From NCBI GenBank assembly GCA_964403735.1, contig CAYOHN010000001.1, positions 1 to 42,817 of the forward strand: a stretch of DNA of 42,817 nucleotides. The letters run 5' to 3'. The notes under the pieces are model-generated. The model saw only the letters and a program-made list of their open reading frames with translations, searched no databases and was not told where the DNA came from. Below, piece by piece: positions 5,571 through 42,817 of the stretch (within the stretch, counting starts at the first letter, position 1; each line of letters begins with the position of its first letter). The stretch comes from an uncultured Spirochaetales bacterium (GTDB lineage Bacteria; Myxococcota_A; UBA9160; PR03). The translations under genes and the position numbers were made by a program.

Positions 5571-6126
5571 CGTTCCCGACCGTACACCGGCGCGCGCCCG
5601 GCGACCATTGTGGCCCCTCGGGGCAAACTGCTTTTACGTGGGCGGAGCGAGCTCCCGGCGGTTGCACTCGGGAATCCGATGGGGGATCGTAGGCCTGATT
5701 TTGCCGACGATTCCGCTGCGCGCAGGATCCGGTCCGTTTGGGTTGACAGGCACCGGGGTGCAACGAGCCCGCAGACCGGATCTCGCTCGAAACGAAAGCC
5801 CGAAACGAAAGCTGACACCGTCGCGGGCAAAGTCAGCTGGGCAACAGCAGCGAACTCGTCGTCGAAAAGAACCGATCCACAGAACGCTACGATAGAAAGC
5901 CGCTACGACGAAGATCGAGGCGGTTCGAGATACCCAGTGCGAGTCGAGCAGCCGGGCGCAACGACGCCCGCCGGGACAACGAAGAAGAGCAACCAACGCC
6001 TGTCCGGAGGCCGCTAGCCGGCCCCCGCACCCCGTTCTGCACCCCATCCGCGCCCCTGAGGCCCCGGGCCGAGGGGGCTGACCGCTCCGACGTTGCCCGC
6101 GCCGGCTCGCCAGCCAGGCCGGGGCG
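5571..6126 (+). promoter_or_regulatory. Long non-coding leader/promoter region upstream of the RNase E/G gene
   Basis: A 556-nt gap with no credible ORF. It is purine/A-rich for this genome. It has the direct repeat cgaaacgaaagc at 5788-5799 and 5801-5812, and a 7-bp stem agctgac/gtcagct at 5810-5816/5832-5838. Confidence 0.4.
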
Positions 6127-8082
<1,956 letters not shown>

Positions 8083-8159
8083 AGCAATCCCAGCCGGGGT
8101 CGTCTCCAGCAAAGCCCGAACAGGACCCAGGACCCAGGACCCGAACAGGAGCGTCGACG

Positions 8160-8471
8160 ATGTACGCGGTAGTCCGCACGGGCGGGAAACAGATCCGGGT
8201 CAGCCCCGGCGAGGCGGTCTGGGTGGAGAAGCTGCCCGGCGAGATCGGCGAGCAGGTGCACCTGGACGAGGTGCTGCTCCTCGGCGGGGACGGCGAACCG
8301 CAGATCGGCGCGCCGCAGGTGCCGGGCGCGCGGGTCGTCGCGACGATCACCGGACACGGTTTGGGCGAGAAGCTCGTCGTCTTCAAGTACAAGCGCCGCA
8401 AGCGCTATCGGCGCAAGCAGGGACATCGACAAAACTACACGCAGATCCGTGTCGAACGGATCGAGGCGTAG
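8160..8471 (+). CDS. rplU: 50S ribosomal protein L21
   Basis: MYAVVRTGGKQIRVSPGE..KYKRRKRYRRKQGHRQ. AGGAG Shine-Dalgarno at 8147-8151. Confidence 0.95.
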   Translation: MYAVVRTGGKQIRVSPGEAVWVEKLPGEIGEQVHLDEVLLLGGDGEPQIGAPQVPGARVVATITGHGLGEKLVVFKYKRRKRYRRKQGHRQNYTQIRVERIEA

Positions 8472-21306: not shown

Positions 21307-21855
21307 CTACCACCAGGAGAAGGGTCGTTCCTTCTTCTTGCGGTCGACCTCGGCGCGGATCTTCTTGCGGTAGTCGGCGAGTCGCTGCGGAAGGCGTTGT
21401 CGCGCGACCGTGGTCCACGGCCGCTGCTCGGCGCCGCGGCGGAACTTCCGGAACTGCCGATAGCCCCACAGCTCCTGCTTGAACTCGTGCTCGAGCATCT
21501 TCATCATGATCGCATCGTCGAGAAAGCCGAGACCCGGAATCTGATCCGGGATCAGGTCCTCGGGATTCACGAAGTACGACAGCGCCGCGAGGATCTCGTT
21601 GCGCGGCCCTCTCGGGAGTTCGTACTCCGCATCCTCGAGCATCTCCTTCAGATCCTCGAGAACAGCCACCGACTCCTTGACGAAGGTCGGTGTCTTCTTC
21701 GCCTTCTGCACCTTCTCGACCAGCTCCCGGACGGACGCCAGAATTTCGGCGATGTCCTGCTCTTCGACGGCTTTTCGCGAGCTGCGGAAGAGTTTCCGGA
21801 AGTAGGCGATGTCGCCCTCGTCGAGACTGAACGAGATCTTGAAGCTCTGCGACAT
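21307..21855 (-). CDS. DUF1232 (YkvA-like) domain protein, Lys/Glu-rich, apparently soluble
   Basis: YFVNPEDLIPDQIPGLGFLDDAIMM matches the DUF1232 signature. GGAGG lies 5 nt upstream of ATG 21855. Local G+C is 34/60 and 37/60 in lines 21661 and 21721, below the neighbours. Confidence 0.75.
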   Translation of the reverse strand: MSQSFKISFSLDEGDIAYFRKLFRSSRKAVEEQDIAEILASVRELVEKVQKAKKTPTFVKESVAVLEDLKEMLEDAEYELPRGPRNEILAALSYFVNPEDLIPDQIPGLGFLDDAIMMKMLEHEFKQELWGYRQFRKFRRGAEQRPWTTVARQRLPQRLADYRKKIRAEVDRKKKERPFSWW

Positions 21856-35982: not shown

Positions 35983-35997
35983 TGGCATGTGTTTTGC
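35983..35997 (+). promoter_or_regulatory. Sigma-54 (-24/-12) promoter upstream of the HD-GYP/PilZ operon
   Basis: TGGCATGTGTTTTGC has GG at 35984-85, N10, and GC at 35996-97. GGAGG at 36032-36036 and GTG 36043 follow. Confidence 0.75.
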
Positions 35998-36042
35998 GAT
36001 CGCGTCGAGAGGCTCGCGAGGCCAACCCCCCGGAGGCTTCCC

Positions 36043-37254
36043 GTGATCGACCGATGCCAGCCGCGAGCCACCGTGCTCGTCGTCGACGACGAGCGTGGCC
36101 CGCGCGAGTCTCTCCGCATGATCCTGTCCCCGGTCTACCGCGTGCTCGCGGTCACGACCGGCAGCGAAGCCGTCGAGGTGCTGCGCACGACTCCGGTGGA
36201 TGTCGTAACGCTGGACCTGGCGATGCCGGGCCTGCGCGGCGCCGAGCTGATCCGCCTGGTCCGCGGCGAGTTCCCCGATGTCGAGCTGATCGTCATCACG
36301 GGGCACGGAACGCTCGAGTCGGCCACCGAAGGCATCCGCTGGGGCATCGCCGACTATCTCCAGAAGCCGTTCGACGTGATGCAGGTGACGGCGGCGGTCT
36401 ATCGGGCGCTGGCGCGGAGGAGGGGCCGCTGCCGGCTCGTGAGCTTCCTCGAAGAACTCGGCGACACGGTGGGGCGCGACGCCGACGTCGCGAACATCCT
36501 GGCGCGCGTCGAAGACAGCTCGGACCTGCGCGGCCGGCTCGGCGAACTCCTCGCCAAGCAGGTCGGGGATCCGGCGCCGGCGGACTGCTTCGACCCGGAC
36601 CGCGTGCTGCCGTTCTTCGAGGTGCTCGCGCAGGCCGGCGAGGCCCAGGATCCCTACCAGCGCGGCCATGGGCGACGCGTCGCGTTCTTCGCCACGCTGC
36701 TCGCCGACCGCCTGTGTCTGTCGGCGGAGCAGAAGCGCAACACGCGCATCGCGGCGTTCCTGCACGACATCGGCAAGATCGGCGTCCCGGCCGAAGTGCT
36801 CGCGCGGCGCGGGGAGCTGGCCGAACCGGAGCGGCGGATCATCGAACGCCACTGCGAGATCGGCGGGCGCCTGCTCGAGCCGCTCGGACTCAGCGCAGAG
36901 ATCGTCGGCGCAGTCCGCCATCACCACGAGCGCTGGGACGGCTGTGGCTATCCCGACGGACTCGCCGGAGAAGCGATCCCGCTCGGCGCACGGATCGTGC
37001 AGATCGCCGACGCGTTCGACGCGATGACGACGGACCGTCCCTGGCGCTGCGCGCGGACGCAGGCCGCAGCGATCGGCGAGCTGCGCCGCGAAGCGGATGG
37101 CCAGTTCGACCCGACGCTGGCCAAGGAGTTCGCCGTCCTCCTCGAGAGCGGCGTGTGCGACATGGACATCGAACGCGTGGCCGACGCGATGGCAACCGCC
37201 AGCGCGGCCACGCGGGTCTCGGCTGCGCCGTCGGCGTTGCGAAGGGCAGGATGA
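36043..37254 (+). CDS. Response regulator with an HD-GYP domain (candidate c-di-GMP phosphodiesterase)
   Basis: REC: TVLVVDDERG..VVTLDLAMPG..VITGHG..YLQKPF. HD-GYP: AAFLHDIGKIGVP, HHERWDGCGYPDG, IADAFDAMTTDRP. Start is GTG 36043. Listed ATG 35989 sits inside the promoter. Confidence 0.85.
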   Translation: MIDRCQPRATVLVVDDERGPRESLRMILSPVYRVLAVTTGSEAVEVLRTTPVDVVTLDLAMPGLRGAELIRLVRGEFPDVELIVITGHGTLESATEGIRWGIADYLQKPFDVMQVTAAVYRALARRRGRCRLVSFLEELGDTVGRDADVANILARVEDSSDLRGRLGELLAKQVGDPAPADCFDPDRVLPFFEVLAQAGEAQDPYQRGHGRRVAFFATLLADRLCLSAEQKRNTRIAAFLHDIGKIGVPAEVLARRGELAEPERRIIERHCEIGGRLLEPLGLSAEIVGAVRHHHERWDGCGYPDGLAGEAIPLGARIVQIADAFDAMTTDRPWRCARTQAAAIGELRREADGQFDPTLAKEFAVLLESGVCDMDIERVADAMATASAATRVSAAPSALRRAG

Positions 37255-37854: not shown

Positions 37855-38742
37855 TCAGCGGATCGCGCGGCTCGAGAGGACGCGGGCCACTTCGTTCCCT
37901 TCGTCGTCGGTCGTCGAGAGGATCGTGACGTTGACGCTTTCCGGATCGAGGACCTGACTTCCCCCGTCGACGAGCGAAAATGACACCGCAACCTCTTGGA
38001 AATCCCCGCGGCCCAGCACGGCAACGGACGCGCGCCCAGGCGCCGTCTCCTCCCACCAGGAAACCTTCTGCCTCGTCCGAGACCCGGGCGACGCCGTCAC
38101 GTCCTCGATCTCGATCACGCCGGGGGGATAGTCCAGGTCCAGCTCGAGCGCGGAGACGGGGCTGTCGAGTCGCAGGATCAGCTGCGGATGCTGCTCCAAC
38201 AACAGCTTCGCGAGTTCGAGGGTGTCGAAGAAATTGCCGTTGATGATCGCTCTCCATGGCGTCGGCGCGCCGACTGAATCGACCGTCGCGTCGCAGTCGA
38301 AGTCGAGCTCGTGCGGGAGGATCGAGAGCACGCCGTCGTACGGAATCTCCTCCTCCTGCTCGAACCCGGCCGTGTCCCGGAAGCGGCGAAGGACCTCGAT
38401 CGAGTACGTGCCGCTGTCCACATCCTGAGGAACGTCGACGAGCGAGACGATCTGCACGTCCCCGCCGATGAGATTGGAGGGAAAGCCCACTTGAATCGAC
38501 GACGTCGCCCGCGTGAGCAGCTCGGTTTCGGTCCCGCGCAGCCGGTAGACCAGCTCGCCGCGCTGCGGATCTTCCACCAGGTCGCTCCCGAACCCGATGA
38601 CGGGCATGCCGCTGGTCTGATCTCCCGTGAGTGGGATGATCACGCTTGCTCCCGCCTGCGCTTGCAAGGGGACTGGAGGGCCGCCACAAGCAATCATCGA
38701 TGTCACGAAGACAGCGAGCAGTCCTAGGGGAAACCAGCGCAT
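37855..38742 (-). CDS. Hypothetical lipoprotein
   Basis: MRWFPLGLLAVFVTSMIAC has a lipobox-like MIAC. AAGAGGAGAG lies just upstream of ATG 38742. No family recognised. Confidence 0.75.
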   Translation of the reverse strand: MRWFPLGLLAVFVTSMIACGGPPVPLQAQAGASVIIPLTGDQTSGMPVIGFGSDLVEDPQRGELVYRLRGTETELLTRATSSIQVGFPSNLIGGDVQIVSLVDVPQDVDSGTYSIEVLRRFRDTAGFEQEEEIPYDGVLSILPHELDFDCDATVDSVGAPTPWRAIINGNFFDTLELAKLLLEQHPQLILRLDSPVSALELDLDYPPGVIEIEDVTASPGSRTRQKVSWWEETAPGRASVAVLGRGDFQEVAVSFSLVDGGSQVLDPESVNVTILSTTDDEGNEVARVLSSRAIR

Positions 38743-38839
38743 CGTTCTCTCCTCTTGCCGGCCGCGAGTGCTCGATCCGCGGCCCGACGTTTCTTGTCAC
38801 TTTCGTGCGACGCATTCTCGTCGCTACCACGCGCTTGCC

Positions 38840-40350
38840 TCACGGTGCGCCCGTGGCTGCGCGCGCCCGGCCGAGAATCCGCATCGCGTCGCCGATCGTA
38901 ATGCTTCCGTCCTCGTCCTCGTCGGCGCCGAGCTCGGCGATCGTCCGGTTCTGGCCGGTGAGTGCTGGGAGCACGCTGGGATCGCGCGTGATTCGCAGGC
39001 TCACCAGCGCGTCGGCCGCTCCGATCCGGCCATTGGGCCGCCCGAGCGGCGCCACGTCGCCGGGCTTGCCGGGGTGGTCGAGGGGGTTCAGCGGATCCGT
39101 GCCGAAGTTCGCCTCGCCGTCGGCGAAGCCGTCCCTGTCGAGGTCCCAAGCAGCGGGCAGCCGCGCCAGCGTTACGAGACCGCCAAAGCCGTCGATGAAG
39201 CGATCGCCGTCGCTGTCGACGCCGAGCGAGTCGAGCGCCACCGAGATCTCGAACGCATCCGGGAGGCCATCGCCGTCGTCGTCGTCGTCGCGCGCGTCGC
39301 CGACGCCGTTGCCGTCCGTGTCGACGATCTCGGCCGCGTCTAGGTGGAACGCGTCGAACCCGTTCACGACGCCATCCCCGTCGGCATCCGGGTCGAAGTT
39401 GTCGTCTACGCCGTCGAGGTCCCGATCGATCAGGAACGCCGACGCCACCGCCGGCGCCCCCGGCGTCGTCACCAGCGCGCGCAGCGCCAGCGCCACGATC
39501 AGCGGATCGCCGTCCCAGACGAGGCCCGCGAGGAAGCGCCCGTCGCGCAGCAGCTCGTTCTGGAACCCGACGTTCGCGCGCCCACTCCGGTGCAGCGCCG
39601 CCAGCCGCGCCGCCAGCTCGAGCGTCGGCGTCGCCGCCGTGATCGCGCTCTCGAGCAGCCCGAGGCTCGGTGCCAGCGAGGCGGGGCTCGCCTTGTCGAC
39701 GAGCGCCCGAACGATCTCCGCCGTCGTCGCGAGGTCGCTGGAGCCCGCGCTCGACGGAATCCCGTCCCCGGACCAGCCGCCATCCGCGCGCCGGCGCAGG
39801 ATCACCGAGCCGGCCAGCATCCCGAGCTCCGGCTGCGGCGGAAGCTGCTGCGCCACGCCGAGCGCATCGAGCGCCAACGCCGTGTCGTACGCACTCGGCC
39901 CCGCCGGTCCGACGAGACCCCAGCCGGCGGTCCCGTTGCGCAGCCCCGCGAGCGCCTCCGCCTCGACGTCCGCCGACACCCCCGCCGCTTCGAGCGCCCG
40001 CACCCGCCGCGCCTGGAAGTCCACCGCAGCCAGCTCCTGCTGCCGAAGCCACGCGATCCCGCGCCGCACCACCACCCCGTTGCGCTCGGCCCCCTGGAGC
40101 GAGAGCGCCGCAATCACCTCCGCCGTCACCAGCGGCCGCGTCGGACCCGACCCCCAAGACCCATCCCCGTTCTGCGCCCGCCCGAACCAAATCACCGCAT
40201 CCCGCACCGCCTGCTCCCGGGGCTTGGCCTCGGCGGCGGGCGCCAAGGCGGCGAGCACCAAGAGGGCCGCGGCGGACGCTGCCAGTAACACCACAACGAG
40301 ACAGCGCGGGCTCGTGCGGCTCGTGAATCGTTCCTGGCTTTGGTCCGGCA
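38840..40350 (-). CDS. Secreted protein: prenyltransferase/terpene-cyclase-like repeats + thrombospondin type-3-like Ca-binding repeats + dockerin-like pair
   Basis: Signal/TM VVVLLAASAAALLVLAALAPAAEA. QNGDGSWG and ADGGWSG repeats. DRDLDGVDDNFDPDADGDGVVNGFD, DTDGNGVGDARDDDDDGDGLPD, DSDGDRFIDGF, DLDRDGFADGE. C-terminal GDVAPLGRPNGRIGAADALVSL and DEDGSITIGDAMRIL. ATG 40350 (MPDQSQE). Confidence 0.75.
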
Positions 40351-40359
40351 TCTTGATCT

Positions 40360-41340
40360 CCTCATCGCCCCGGTCGATCCTCACTGCCTGTCTCGCCAGC
40401 CTTGATCTCTCTCGACCGTCTCGGGTTCTTCCTGACACTTCCGTTCCTCTGTTCTCGCGACCCGATATCCGTTCGAAAATTTTCTTGCGTACCACCGGAG
40501 AACTGCACTGTCGCCGCCAATCCAATCTGGCGCCTTCTTCTCGAAGAGTCGCGGACTGTTTGCGCCGCTCGTCTGCAGGCGAAACCTCGCGTCGCGGGCG
40601 ACTCCGATGACAGAGAACAGATCTCGGACAGTGCTCGCCACGACAGCGCCAGACGCTTCATTCCAGATCGAATCGACGCTGAATTGCACCCGAAGAATCA
40701 CGTTCTTGCGATCAGCCGGCTCGCAATAGGAAAGATTCCTCCCTTCAAAGAACTCAGATATCACGCCACGCATCTGTTCGGACCAGCTTGTGCGGGGAAT
40801 GTCCAAGAAGAGCCGACAGCGATCCTCGGAGCCTCCTTCTGCTCGTTCAATGCGAATCATTGCCCGTGACTCTGGATGCCGAATCGTTACCGTTCCCCCG
40901 TTTTCCTTCACGGTAATAAGGCAGTGAACCCAATAGGAGAAATCCTCAGCACTCACGAATCCGATCAGATACCTGCGAACGCGCTGAAACAGCCATCCCG
41001 CACCCAGAAGTAGAAGTACGAAGGCAACTAGCCGCATCAGTCGAACCGATCAAGCAGAACCGGGATTGTCTCGTCAAACGTGGATATGAGTCCCGATATC
41101 TGACCGACTCGGAACCCGACTACGCCCGCCGGAGATCGGGTTACGGACTGGCCGCCAAGGTTGAACGACGCACCGTCGTCGAACCCCTTCTGAAAGTTGA
41201 AGCCGAACTCACTGAGTGCAGCCTGCCTCGACGGATCCCTCACGAACTGCGAAACACGGTTGGCCCCAGCCACCGCCGTGGCCAAAGCAACGTTACGGTT
41301 TACGACGAATCTCGCCCCGACCTGAGTCAGAAGGTTGTTG
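40360..41340. other. Low-GC tract covering the immunity-like ORF and the last ~100 codons of the Rhs gene
   Basis: Hand counts of G+C per 60 nt: 32 (40441-40500), 30 (40681-40740), 32 (41281-41340). Compare 42 (41341-41400) and 47 (39001-39060). Confidence 0.7.
40381..41037 (-). CDS. Putative cognate immunity protein of the Rhs C-terminal toxin (N-terminal TM anchor)
   Basis: 218-aa ORF whose ATG (41037-41035) overlaps the Rhs stop (41039-41037) as ATGA. N-terminal helix MRLVAFVLLLLGAGWLF. Low GC. No family recognised. The function is inferred from position only. Confidence 0.55.
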   Translation of the reverse strand: MRLVAFVLLLLGAGWLFQRVRRYLIGFVSAEDFSYWVHCLITVKENGGTVTIRHPESRAMIRIERAEGGSEDRCRLFLDIPRTSWSEQMRGVISEFFEGRNLSYCEPADRKNVILRVQFSVDSIWNEASGAVVASTVRDLFSVIGVARDARFRLQTSGANSPRLFEKKAPDWIGGDSAVLRWYARKFSNGYRVARTEERKCQEEPETVERDQGWRDRQ

Positions 41341-42817
41341 ACACCCGTCGACGTGACCGCGCCGGCAAGAGGGGCGAGCACGGGAAGGTTCGAAGCCTGG
41401 AACGCCGCGAACGCGGCCGGGGTTCCGGCGAGGCCGAGCGGCGCCGCGACCACCGCGGCTGAGTTCACCGGGTTGAAGTTGCACCTGCGGGCGCCGCACG
41501 GCCGCTGGGGGTCGAGCAGTGCGACGGGGTTCGGGTCGAACTGCGGCCTCGAGAAACCTGATCCCGCGCCGCTTCCGAGACCTCCTACCGTCGACGGTGC
41601 ACCAGAGGCCAAGCTGATGCTGCTCGATCCTCCGAACCCGCTCCCACCCGCCGGGAACGAGAACCCGAAGTCCCCCGCGATCGAGAACGGATCGAGCCCG
41701 GTCGGGTCGACGAAGCGGTAGGGGTTGTTCGCCGCGTACGCGTACGTCGCCACCGCCGCGATCCCAAGTGGGTCGGGCTGGAGGAAGGCGCCGATCCGCG
41801 GGTCGTAGTGGCGGGCGCCCATGTGGACGAGGCCGCTCGCGCCCTCGCTGAGCATGCCGGCGAAGCGGCGCTCGGTCGGGGCGCTGCCGCTCGCTTGGAT
41901 CTGCTCGCCGAACGCCGCGTAGCGGACACTCGCGCGCGTCGTCGCGAGCGCGCCGCCGGGTGCGGCGTCGACGCGCGCCATGCGCACGACGTTCCCCGCG
42001 GCGTCGCCGAGCAGGCTCCACAGCACCGGCGCCTGCGCCGACGGGCCCGCCGACACCTCCGCCACCACGCCCCCGGGTCCGGGGCCCGGGATCCAGCGCA
42101 CCGTCTCGGCCGCCTGGCCCTGCGCGTCGACGCCGCGCAGCTCCATGAGGCCCGCGAGGAACAGCGTCGTCTCGCTCGCCGCCGAGGCCGTCAGCCACTC
42201 GGTGCGCCGGATCCGGTTGCCCAGCGGGTCGTACTCGAGGGTCAGTCGATAGCCCGTCGTGAGATTGAGCACCGCCGTGAGGCGCCCGAGGCCGTCGTAG
42301 GCGTAGCCGGTGAAGACGTTGGCGGCCACATCGACCTTCACTTGGCGGCGGCCGGCGGAGTCGTAGCTGAACTGCTCCTCGACCACGTCGTCCGAGACCC
42401 GCCGCGTCTCCTCGAGCTCGTCGGCGGCGTCGACGACGAAGCGGCGGTTGAAGCCCCTCTTGTGGCGCGTGCGGTTGCCGTCGCGGTCGTAGTCGAACTC
42501 TTCGTTCGGGCCGGTCTGGTACGTGGCCCCCTTGACTCGGCTGCGCCCGTCGAACACCGGCCGGGTGATGCCTTCCGGGAAGTCGATGCGGAGGGGATTG
42601 CCCAGCTCGTCGTAGTTGTTGTAGTCCACCGTCTCGTCCGCAAGCCCCGGATACGAGTACGCGATGTCGTCGACCCAGCCCTCCGGCCGATACGTCGTCG
42701 CCGCCCGCACGCCGCGCGGATCGAGCCGATCCGCCAGCCGGCCCGCCCCGTCCCACGCGAAGCCCCACGACCACATCCGGTCCTGGCCGGGGGCGGCGAA
42801 GGTGCCGGTGTCGTGGA
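41037..42817 (-). CDS. Rhs/YD-repeat protein, C-terminal part (N-terminus beyond the right edge), with an unassigned C-terminal toxin tip
   Basis: YD-type repeats (YDELGNPL, YDRDGNR, YDSAGRR, YDGLGRL, YDPLGNR). Core end GARHYDPRIGAFLQPDPLG ... NNPYRFVDPTGL. The reading frame stays open upstream of listed M1 to position 42817. Confidence 0.9.
   Translation of the reverse strand, partial: HDTGTFAAPGQDRMWSWGFAWDGAGRLADRLDPRGVRAATTYRPEGWVDDIAYSYPGLADETVDYNNYDELGNPLRIDFPEGITRPVFDGRSRVKGATYQTGPNEEFDYDRDGNRTRHKRGFNRRFVVDAADELEETRRVSDDVVEEQFSYDSAGRRQVKVDVAANVFTGYAYDGLGRLTAVLNLTTGYRLTLEYDPLGNRIRRTEWLTASAASETTLFLAGLMELRGVDAQGQAAETVRWIPGPGPGGVVAEVSAGPSAQAPVLWSLLGDAAGNVVRMARVDAAPGGALATTRASVRYAAFGEQIQASGSAPTERRFAGMLSEGASGLVHMGARHYDPRIGAFLQPDPLGIAAVATYAYAANNPYRFVDPTGLDPFSIAGDFGFSFPAGGSGFGGSSSISLASGAPSTVGGLGSGAGSGFSRPQFDPNPVALLDPQRPCGARRCNFNPVNSAAVVAAPLGLAGTPAAFAAFQASNLPVLAPLAGAVTSTGVNNLLTQVGARFVVNRNVALATAVAGANRVSQFVRDPSRQAALSEFGFNFQKGFDDGASFNLGGQSVTRSPAGVVGFRVGQISGLISTFDETIPVLLDRFD

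Follow-up and report, generated by a model that had tools for sequence, protein, structure and literature searches.

An unassigned Rhs C-terminal tip and its membrane-anchored partner as a candidate toxin/immunity pair in a low-GC module

What are the two proteins encoded at the 3' end of the Rhs gene on contig CAYOHN010000001.1 of an uncultured bacterium? The window analyzed here is the complete NCBI contig (42,817 bp, 70.4% GC), and on its minus strand the conserved shell of an Rhs protein is followed by a C-terminal tail of 218 residues (41693-41040), which in turn is followed by an open reading frame (ORF) of 218 amino acids (40381..41037, minus strand). A sequence-only reading of the window had proposed that the tail and the ORF form a toxin/immunity module without recognizable relatives and that the toxin acts on membranes in a non-enzymatic manner. 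Our comparison with related loci supports the view that the pair represents an Rhs polymorphic C-terminal toxin tip and its cognate immunity gene, while the mode of action allows for more than one explanation, of which we favor an engagement of the tip with the cytoplasmic membrane of the target cell.

The Rhs gene is truncated by the contig end at 42817, and approximately 375 C-terminal residues of the shell are present (41694..42817, minus strand). These contain RHS/YD repeats (PF05593 RHS_repeat, 1.1e-8; TIGR01643, 3.6e-10; Pfam and NCBIfam) and match the solved Rhs cores 8h8a, 7q97, and 8qja in the PDB. The Rhs-associated core domain at their end (41921-41694, minus strand) is covered by a full-length match to TIGR03696 Rhs_assc_core (1-76/76, E 8.6e-21) and terminates as ...NNPYRFVDPTGL. 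The boundary had been placed at DPTGL, with the final Leu codon at 41696-41694, and both the coordinates and the reading frames proved correct; the Rhs core is intact up to and including its DPxGL boundary. Within the core terminus, a QPDPLG motif precedes the final VDPTGL, with a distance of 22 residues between the Asp of DPLG and the Asp of DPTGL. In Tse5, the distance between the catalytic residues D1141 and D1164 is 23, with the Rhs domain terminating at L1168 (PMC9637101, PMC10684867). In light of this similar spacing, it is reasonable to infer by analogy that the tail would be freed through aspartyl autoproteolysis after DPTGL.

The tail itself has an unusual composition, with 30 Gly, 30 Ala, 23 Ser, and 20 Phe, a single Lys, 2 Glu, 2 Cys, and no His, Trp, Tyr, or Met; residue counts thus agree exactly with the earlier description of 218 residues with two Cys and without His. 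The tail can be divided into four parts. Residues 1-49 (41547..41693, minus strand) form a Gly/Ser/Phe-rich low-complexity linker, which opens with the conserved motif SIAGDFGFS.P.GGSGFG, is variable in length beyond it (including a 17-residue indel), and shows only slight conservation past its first 21 residues in two tail alignments. Residues 50-118 (41340..41546, minus strand) represent a high-GC 'constant' half and hold the motif PQFDPNP..LLD.QRPCGxxxC.FNP.NS, in which the Cys pair C66/C71 (Cys-x4-Cys) is invariant. A reading of 'PCGxxxC' as part of a deaminase was considered and rejected, as the upstream H/C-x-E motif is absent and the tail contains zero His. The first Ala/Gly/Pro-rich hydrophobic stretches come after the Cys motif, the hydrophobic region as a whole extending over residues ~80-150. 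Residues 119-173 (41175..41339, minus strand), in which the GC content begins to fall, include the invariant motifs R.DP..Q and FGFN...GF..G as well as a putative long helix (residues 119-151), predicted only by an AlphaFold2 (AF2) model of very low confidence. This model, calculated from the single tail sequence, reached a predicted local distance difference test score (pLDDT) of 36.5 and was unusable, so it was excluded from the fold search. Residues 174-218 (41040..41174, minus strand) constitute a variable C-terminal end. Among the aligned tails there is no invariant Glu, Lys, or His, residues 119-218 likewise being devoid of His.

The ORF is tightly connected to the toxin gene: the TGA stop of the latter (41039-41037) and the ATG of the former (41037-41035) overlap by 1 nt as TGATG. 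The stop/start overlap reported from the sequence alone therefore stands, while the sequence given for it, ATGA, occurs in two related loci and not in the window. The proposed length of 218 aa and the single N-terminal transmembrane helix were borne out as well, since an AF2 model of the ORF product (pLDDT 71.6, predicted template modeling score 0.64, from only 3 sequences) places a hydrophobic helix at residues 2-23. In the predicted layout, a transmembrane anchor (residues ~3-17, 41031-40987) leads into an α/β domain, which gives way to a disordered tail (residues 186-218); the domain past the helix is charged (34 basic and 29 acidic residues). In all four ORF homologues, 3-4 basic residues (an Arg cluster) follow the helix and one precedes it, which, according to the positive-inside rule, suggests an N-out/C-in topology with the soluble domain facing the cytoplasm. 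The predicted fold has the order α-β-β-β-α-β-α-β, and the best Foldseek matches in the PDB are SigE, ExsC, SycH, and SicP, i.e., class I chaperones of type III secretion systems (T3SS); this resemblance is weak (E 1.4e-2 to 6e-2, target-relative TM-scores of 0.36-0.45). The ratio of nonsynonymous to synonymous substitutions (dN/dS) of the ORF is 0.13-0.23, and judged by this pattern it is a real gene under purifying selection. An antisense ORF (40402-40869) was rejected, since purifying selection acts on the minus-strand frame. In the known homologous loci (P0002, P0003, and the ORF of L016), the ORF sits directly after the Rhs tip.

Besides the window, three related loci were found: a syntenic locus (L001), an orphan (L011), and an orphan array (L016). 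The syntenic locus is found in the Logan assemblies L001-L010. L001 has the gene order 196 aa, Rhs (2259 aa), 204-aa ORF, 498 aa, and 296 aa, and its identity to the window amounts to 72% for the Rhs core, 53% for the tail, 50% for the ORF, 80% for the 498-aa gene, and 53% for the 296-aa gene. The 196-aa gene lacks a family match and is always found directly upstream of Rhs, overlapping the Rhs start. L002 (1-10934) contains Rhs loci in tandem, with Rhs, the immunity gene, the 498-aa gene, and the 296-aa gene followed by a 196-aa gene and a second Rhs; one of the L002 tails shows a single Gly-to-Cys change with respect to L001. L011 originates from a stromatolite metagenome and consists of an orphan Rhs core terminus of 128 aa. 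A clean deletion has removed tail codons ~13-214 here, so that GFS continues out of frame into the final ~15 nt of the toxin gene. The ORF of this locus is nevertheless intact, its start still overlaps the stop, and it has been kept under purifying selection. L016 stems from a JGI metagenome and carries orphan Rhs C-terminal (Rhs-CT) modules in an array, all with a common start point within the core; its tail is frameshifted through a 17-nt tandem duplication, and the frame-corrected tail leads into a 212-aa ORF with 22% identity to the ORF of the window. Upstream of this module (L016 1-965), another tip, rich in Gly, Phe, Ala, and Asp, comes to its end (...GGDFTAFGG...GVGVGLALALTPNFGIG...), and its stop overlaps as ATGA with a 110-aa ORF, whose product has two transmembrane helices and is Cys-rich at the C-terminus (CPCC...CSKCGC). 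The two resemble a further unassigned toxin/immunity pair, of the classic 'hydrophobic immunity' type.

The closest genome match to the window, CAADGG010000013.1 (L012) from the metagenome-assembled genome 'uncultured proteobacterium PRO3', lacks the pair. Here, 200 unrelated nt replace window positions 42469-40229 (~2.2 kb, comprising the 3' part of Rhs, the tail, and the ORF): an Rhs fragment (L012 1-373) matches 42638-42470 of the window and is joined via the 200 nt to the downstream gene, with both downstream genes retained at 83% identity. As the contig ends there, this deletion may be an assembly artefact.

A comparison of the tails along their length revealed a mosaic. Within residues 50-118, the window is 86% identical to L016 and 61% to L001; within residues 119-173, the values are 45% and 47%, respectively; and within residues 174-218, identity to L016 drops to 13% while that to L001 is 56%. 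The identity of the ORF tracks this last segment, being 22% to L016 as compared to 47-57% to the other loci. Even among similar Rhs genes, the C-terminal domain is thus the part that varies, with 72% identity in the core vs. 53% in the tail for L001 and with unrelated last 45 residues in L016. Since the ORF identity follows tail residues 174-218, the C-terminal end of the toxin is the likely determinant recognized by the immunity protein. Across the loci, tail and ORF co-occur, or the ORF is found alone where the toxin is deleted, and it is the last ~45-100 residues of the tail that co-vary with the ORF. The tail, with a dN/dS of ~0.2-0.35, is itself under constraint.

Taken together, the proposal of a toxin/immunity module is supported by purifying selection, the retention of the ORF in L011, the C-terminal co-variation, a shared low GC content, and the absence of the block from L012; close relatives differ in whether they carry the low-GC block, which is formed by the ORF and the 3' half of the tail. 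Position, translational coupling, co-variation, and orphan retention all fit an immunity gene, whose protective role we infer from these features. An exchange junction had been suggested at ~41340, and GC content as well as similarity do fall from residue ~118 onwards; the clear replacement in L016, however, starts only at residue ~174 (~41174). A swap at DPTGL to an unrelated tip was not observed in this small clade. The four natural variants, i.e., an intact pair, a diverged pair, a toxin-deleted copy, and a copy with a replaced C-terminus, amount to a small specificity experiment that points to residues 174-218.

The low GC content of the module is pronounced. In 300-nt sliding windows, the contig has a mean GC of 0.704 (sd 0.041), and the longest and deepest low-GC run comprises those starting at 40251-41051 (~40250-41350), with values of 0.52-0.60 and a minimum of 0.523. 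The GC dip noted earlier over the end of the toxin and the ORF hence persists in this check and is the deepest on the contig. Within the block (40300..41340) lie the final ~100 codons of the toxin, the immunity gene, and a short spacer before the next gene. GC at third codon positions (GC3) changes along with it: from 0.95 in the Rhs core, it drops within the tail to 0.81 (residues 1-118) and then 0.69 (residues 119-218), reaches 0.60 in the ORF, and returns to 0.90 in the next gene. The immunity genes of all four loci have a GC of 0.555-0.585, compared to 0.70-0.74 for the cores, and L001 carries a matching dip at 7400-8300. Since the same low GC is found in all four loci, the module is, by this comparison, old and shared and not a recent arrival in the window contig. 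The cassette was not found to be marked by flanking repeats, by a promoter-like site, or by a terminator above chance, and an Rfam scan of the window gave no match. Two shallower GC dips (0.59-0.62) exist elsewhere on the contig, at ~5600-5950 and at 21307-21855 (minus strand), the latter coinciding with a 182-aa Lys/Glu-rich ORF (MSQSFKISFSLDEGDIAYFRKLF...) between two long high-GC ORFs.

Searches of the tail, the ORF, and their homologues against Pfam, NCBIfam, PADLOC, and PHROGs resulted in no match, or in noise above E 0.02, and searches of the tail and the ORF against all PDB chains (single-sequence and profile) gave no match either, in agreement with the earlier impression that the two resemble nothing recognized. 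A tblastn search against plasmids found nothing similar. Among 5.8 billion protein clusters, two homologues of the ORF were detectable, P0002 (59% identity) and P0003 (52%). A word-indexed search with the tail, both alone and as a two-sequence alignment, returned nothing and missed even the L001 Rhs, probably because low-complexity words swamped the candidate lists (5,636 and 8,000). An exhaustive phmmer search with tail residues 50-218 against 1.84 billion representatives resulted in two matches, P0005 and P0004. The sole true match is P0005, which is the L016 tail, aligned only up to its frameshift. P0004, a 1335-aa protein with tandem repeats of ~50 residues (QFDSEQPGAIHQTTRPSGQPQPGNSTV...), was treated as spurious, since its E of 1e-15 is summed over 12 weak repeated matches of 48 residues each and its significance is thus inflated by the repeats. 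While a scan of genome contigs with the immunity alignment found no match, the same scan with the downstream gene led to L012. Scans of metagenome contigs with both tail alignments gave no match and missed even L016, so these scans are not exhaustive. Counts of rarity are lower bounds, and 50%-identity clustering of whole Rhs proteins can hide tips. Within these bounds, the tail and the ORF are, by sequence, a previously unassigned and very rare family.

Regarding the mode of action, the composition of the tail, without His and without an invariant Glu or Lys, makes a conventional enzyme unlikely. The claim of a non-enzymatic, membrane-acting toxin draws on the same composition, and it is not established, given the marginal transmembrane character of the tail, the failure of AF2, and an immunity protein unlike the polytopic ones. 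The model we prefer, to which we assign a probability of roughly one half, is a version of this claim. Export would precede action: in the L001 homologue, the Rhs N-terminus resembles a Sec signal peptide, judged by eye (MMHAKGGLPLLVAALAVWWPTLA), the region 929-3928 of L001 encodes a Transglut_core domain (PF01841, 1.5e-12) and a DUF6531 domain ahead of the RHS repeats (Pfam), and no Pfam PAAR domain was found in the first 1000 residues. These features make delivery by a type VI secretion system (T6SS) improbable, and the Rhs protein is probably exported via Sec, as read across from L001 to the window, where the N-terminal half is missing. The 218-aa tail would be housed inside the Rhs shell until its release at DPTGL. 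The constant half (residues 50-118), with its Cys-x4-Cys loop and Ala/Gly-rich stretches, would then engage or insert into the cytoplasmic membrane of the target cell, while the variable half (residues 119-218) would bear the toxic and immunity-recognized surface, the activity most likely being a non-enzymatic perturbation of this membrane. The immunity protein, held by its single transmembrane tether, would capture the exposed C-terminal end of the toxin with its α/β domain on the cytoplasmic face.

Several observations weigh against this model. The hydrophobic stretches of the tail are short, rich in Pro and Gly, and of borderline hydropathy: the Kyte-Doolittle 19-residue mean peaks at 1.65 (residues 80-98), with the other segments, which contain Pro and Gly, staying under the threshold, and estimates of the summed Hessa-type ΔG range from +3 to +5 kcal/mol. 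AF2 yielded no usable model of the tail. Known immunity proteins against pore-formers are small and polytopic (PMC9637101, PMC11630599), while the ORF of the window encodes one transmembrane helix and a soluble domain of ~170 aa. The cytoplasmic orientation of this domain is deduced from the positive-inside rule only, its likeness to T3SS chaperones is weak (E 1.4e-2 at best), and the export route is taken from L001.

The main rival explanation is a bipartite tip as in CdiA-CT proteins, with which hydrophobic segments too weak for stable transmembrane helices would be in line. Residues ~50-118 would then serve as an entry domain that conveys the C-terminal ~100 residues through the inner membrane, and these residues would be a small, soluble cytoplasmic toxin, i.e., a new enzyme fold or a stoichiometric inhibitor, neutralized by the cytoplasmic domain of the immunity protein. 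The conservation of the tail is indeed mosaic in the way of such tips (86% in residues 50-118 vs. 13% in residues 174-218 between the window and L016), with a constant N-terminal half and a C-terminal end that co-varies with the immunity protein; the GC break at residue ~118 and the putative cytoplasmic localization of the soluble immunity domain fit as well, and the invariant Cys pair is reminiscent of the disulfide predicted in some CdiA-CT entry domains (PMC11630599). However, no recognizable cytoplasmic enzyme is evident in the C-terminal sub-domain, which has no family match: the last 100 residues lack His, an invariant Glu or Lys, and any family or PDB match, and the segment replaced in L016 is, with only ~45 residues, too small for an enzyme. 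Moreover, a purely cytoplasmic immunity function gives no clear need for the conserved membrane anchor. We regard a bipartite tip with a cytoplasmic toxin as possible but, on balance, doubtful.

Further from our preferred model of membrane engagement and tethered capture are two explanations that question the roles of the ORF and the tail themselves. That the ORF encodes a chaperone or adaptor on the producer side, which has a fold like that of T3SS chaperones and preserves the export competence of the hydrophobic tip, is brought to mind by its top Foldseek matches (SigE, ExsC, SycH, and SicP) and by its tight translational coupling to the Rhs gene. We nonetheless consider this very unlikely, as these structural matches are weak (E values of 1.4e-2 or more, TM-scores below 0.5), such a protein would have no obvious role for a Sec-exported, shell-encapsulated tip, and the L011 ORF, intact under purifying selection after the loss of the toxin, carries the classic signature of an orphan immunity gene, which argues against a toxin-specific chaperone. 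Still less probable is a scenario in which the Rhs shell is filled by a degenerate or inactive tail, the ORF encodes an unrelated small membrane protein, and the low GC results only from relaxed constraint. While the low-complexity composition, the frameshift of the L016 copy by its 17-nt tandem duplication, and the failure to find toxin homology in Pfam, NCBIfam, and PDB searches would be in line with such a filler, the tail is 53% identical with dN well below dS across diverged lineages, holds invariant motifs, and is always adjacent to, and co-varying with, the ORF.

The module can be placed among known systems with regard to its scaffold, its presumed activity, and its immunity protein. 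With the Rhs systems of E. coli, Dickeya (Rhs), P. protegens (RhsA), and Gram-positive bacteria (WapA), it shares the YD shell, the DPxGL core, a variable tip, and a coupled immunity gene as well as, in related loci, arrays of orphan tips and immunity genes (L016) and a tip module of low GC. It differs from them in that tip and immunity protein match no described family, in the homologue with a Sec-like N-terminus (by eye), a transglutaminase-like domain, and DUF6531 but no Pfam PAAR in the first 1000 residues, and in two additional conserved envelope genes after the immunity gene of the window. In Pseudomonas aeruginosa, the pore-forming toxin Tse5-CT is encapsulated by an Rhs shell and countered by the membrane immunity protein Tsi5 (PMC9637101, PMC10684867). 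This pair offers a parallel with regard to an Rhs-borne tip of ~150-220 residues, the lack of a predicted enzymatic domain, the hydrophobic stretches, and the membrane-anchored immunity; the concept of a membrane-acting Rhs toxin is therefore not new (PMC9637101). Tse5 has, however, no detectable sequence similarity to the tail of the window in searches of all PDB chains (profile and single-sequence) and is delivered by the T6SS with a PAAR-like N-terminus, and Tsi5 has two transmembrane segments, in contrast to the one segment and ~170-aa α/β domain of the ORF; the transmembrane character of the tail is marginal.

A second point of reference is provided by contact-dependent inhibition (CDI) ionophores, i.e., EC93-like CdiA-CTs with an entry domain and a predicted five-helix ionophore bundle, the CdiI of which are two-helix hairpins of 72-100 aa that are highly polymorphic within groups (PMC11630599). 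These resemble the module of the window in their bipartite CT, in which the 'entry' part is N-terminal and contact with the immunity protein is made by the C-terminal part, and in the strong co-variation of toxin and immunity protein within the family, where immunity identities are only ~20-50%. Differences lie in the tail, which lacks a confident helical bundle, in the mostly soluble immunity protein, and in the scaffold, which is Rhs instead of CdiA. Class I T3SS chaperones, to which only the ORF can be compared, are closest by Foldseek and share a mixed α/β arrangement, but they show no sequence similarity to the ORF, are soluble without a transmembrane anchor, and serve T3SS export. As no homology to the described pore-forming domains of Tse5-CT, CDI ionophores, or pore-forming colicins was found in Pfam, NCBIfam, and PDB sequence and profile searches, and as the ORF, with a single helix and a charged α/β domain, is not a small, very hydrophobic, polytopic immunity protein, we file the module only under 'Rhs tip plus immunity'.

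Outside the toxin module, two conserved genes lie downstream (37855..40351, minus strand; synteny with L001-L005 and L012), which are probably co-transcribed and, where an immunity gene is present, always come after it. The first begins 30 nt past the immunity gene with a GAGGAG ribosome-binding site and encodes a secreted protein of 503 aa (40351-38840, minus strand; weak TSP3_bac match), in which TSP3-type Ca-binding repeats and a dockerin-like end are accompanied by repeats with a weak likeness to squalene cyclase. The second encodes a 295-aa lipoprotein (38742-37855, minus strand) with a weak MtsC-like match. Identities of this pair to its relatives in L001-L005 and L012 are 80-83% and 53%, and its counterparts are located at 8356-10835 in L001 and at 188-2750 in L012, where the pair has been kept despite the loss of the toxin/immunity block. 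The plus strand encodes, at 35989-37254, a response regulator with an HD-GYP-type domain (Response_reg 1.2e-22, HD_5 2.9e-39), ~600 bp past the oppositely oriented lipoprotein gene.

The locus otherwise has the standard layout of Rhs tip and immunity gene and opens no long-standing question; what is uncommon is a tail without His, Trp, Tyr, and Met and with one Lys, together with an immunity architecture of one transmembrane helix and a soluble domain. A more far-reaching proposal would be that the tail is the founding example of a new class of toxins that are non-enzymatic and insert into the membrane, whose C-terminal ~45 residues are captured on the cytoplasmic side by a tethered, T3SS-chaperone-like immunity protein and whose specificity is reset by exchanging only these residues together with the immunity gene, although we consider this unlikely in its entirety. 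If true, such tethered capture would differ from immunity to colicins, Tse5, and CDI ionophores, which relies on helix packing within the membrane. Should the tail prove toxic, the pair would add a new effector/immunity family to the Rhs repertoire, in an uncultured high-GC lineage represented in a stromatolite metagenome and other environmental samples.

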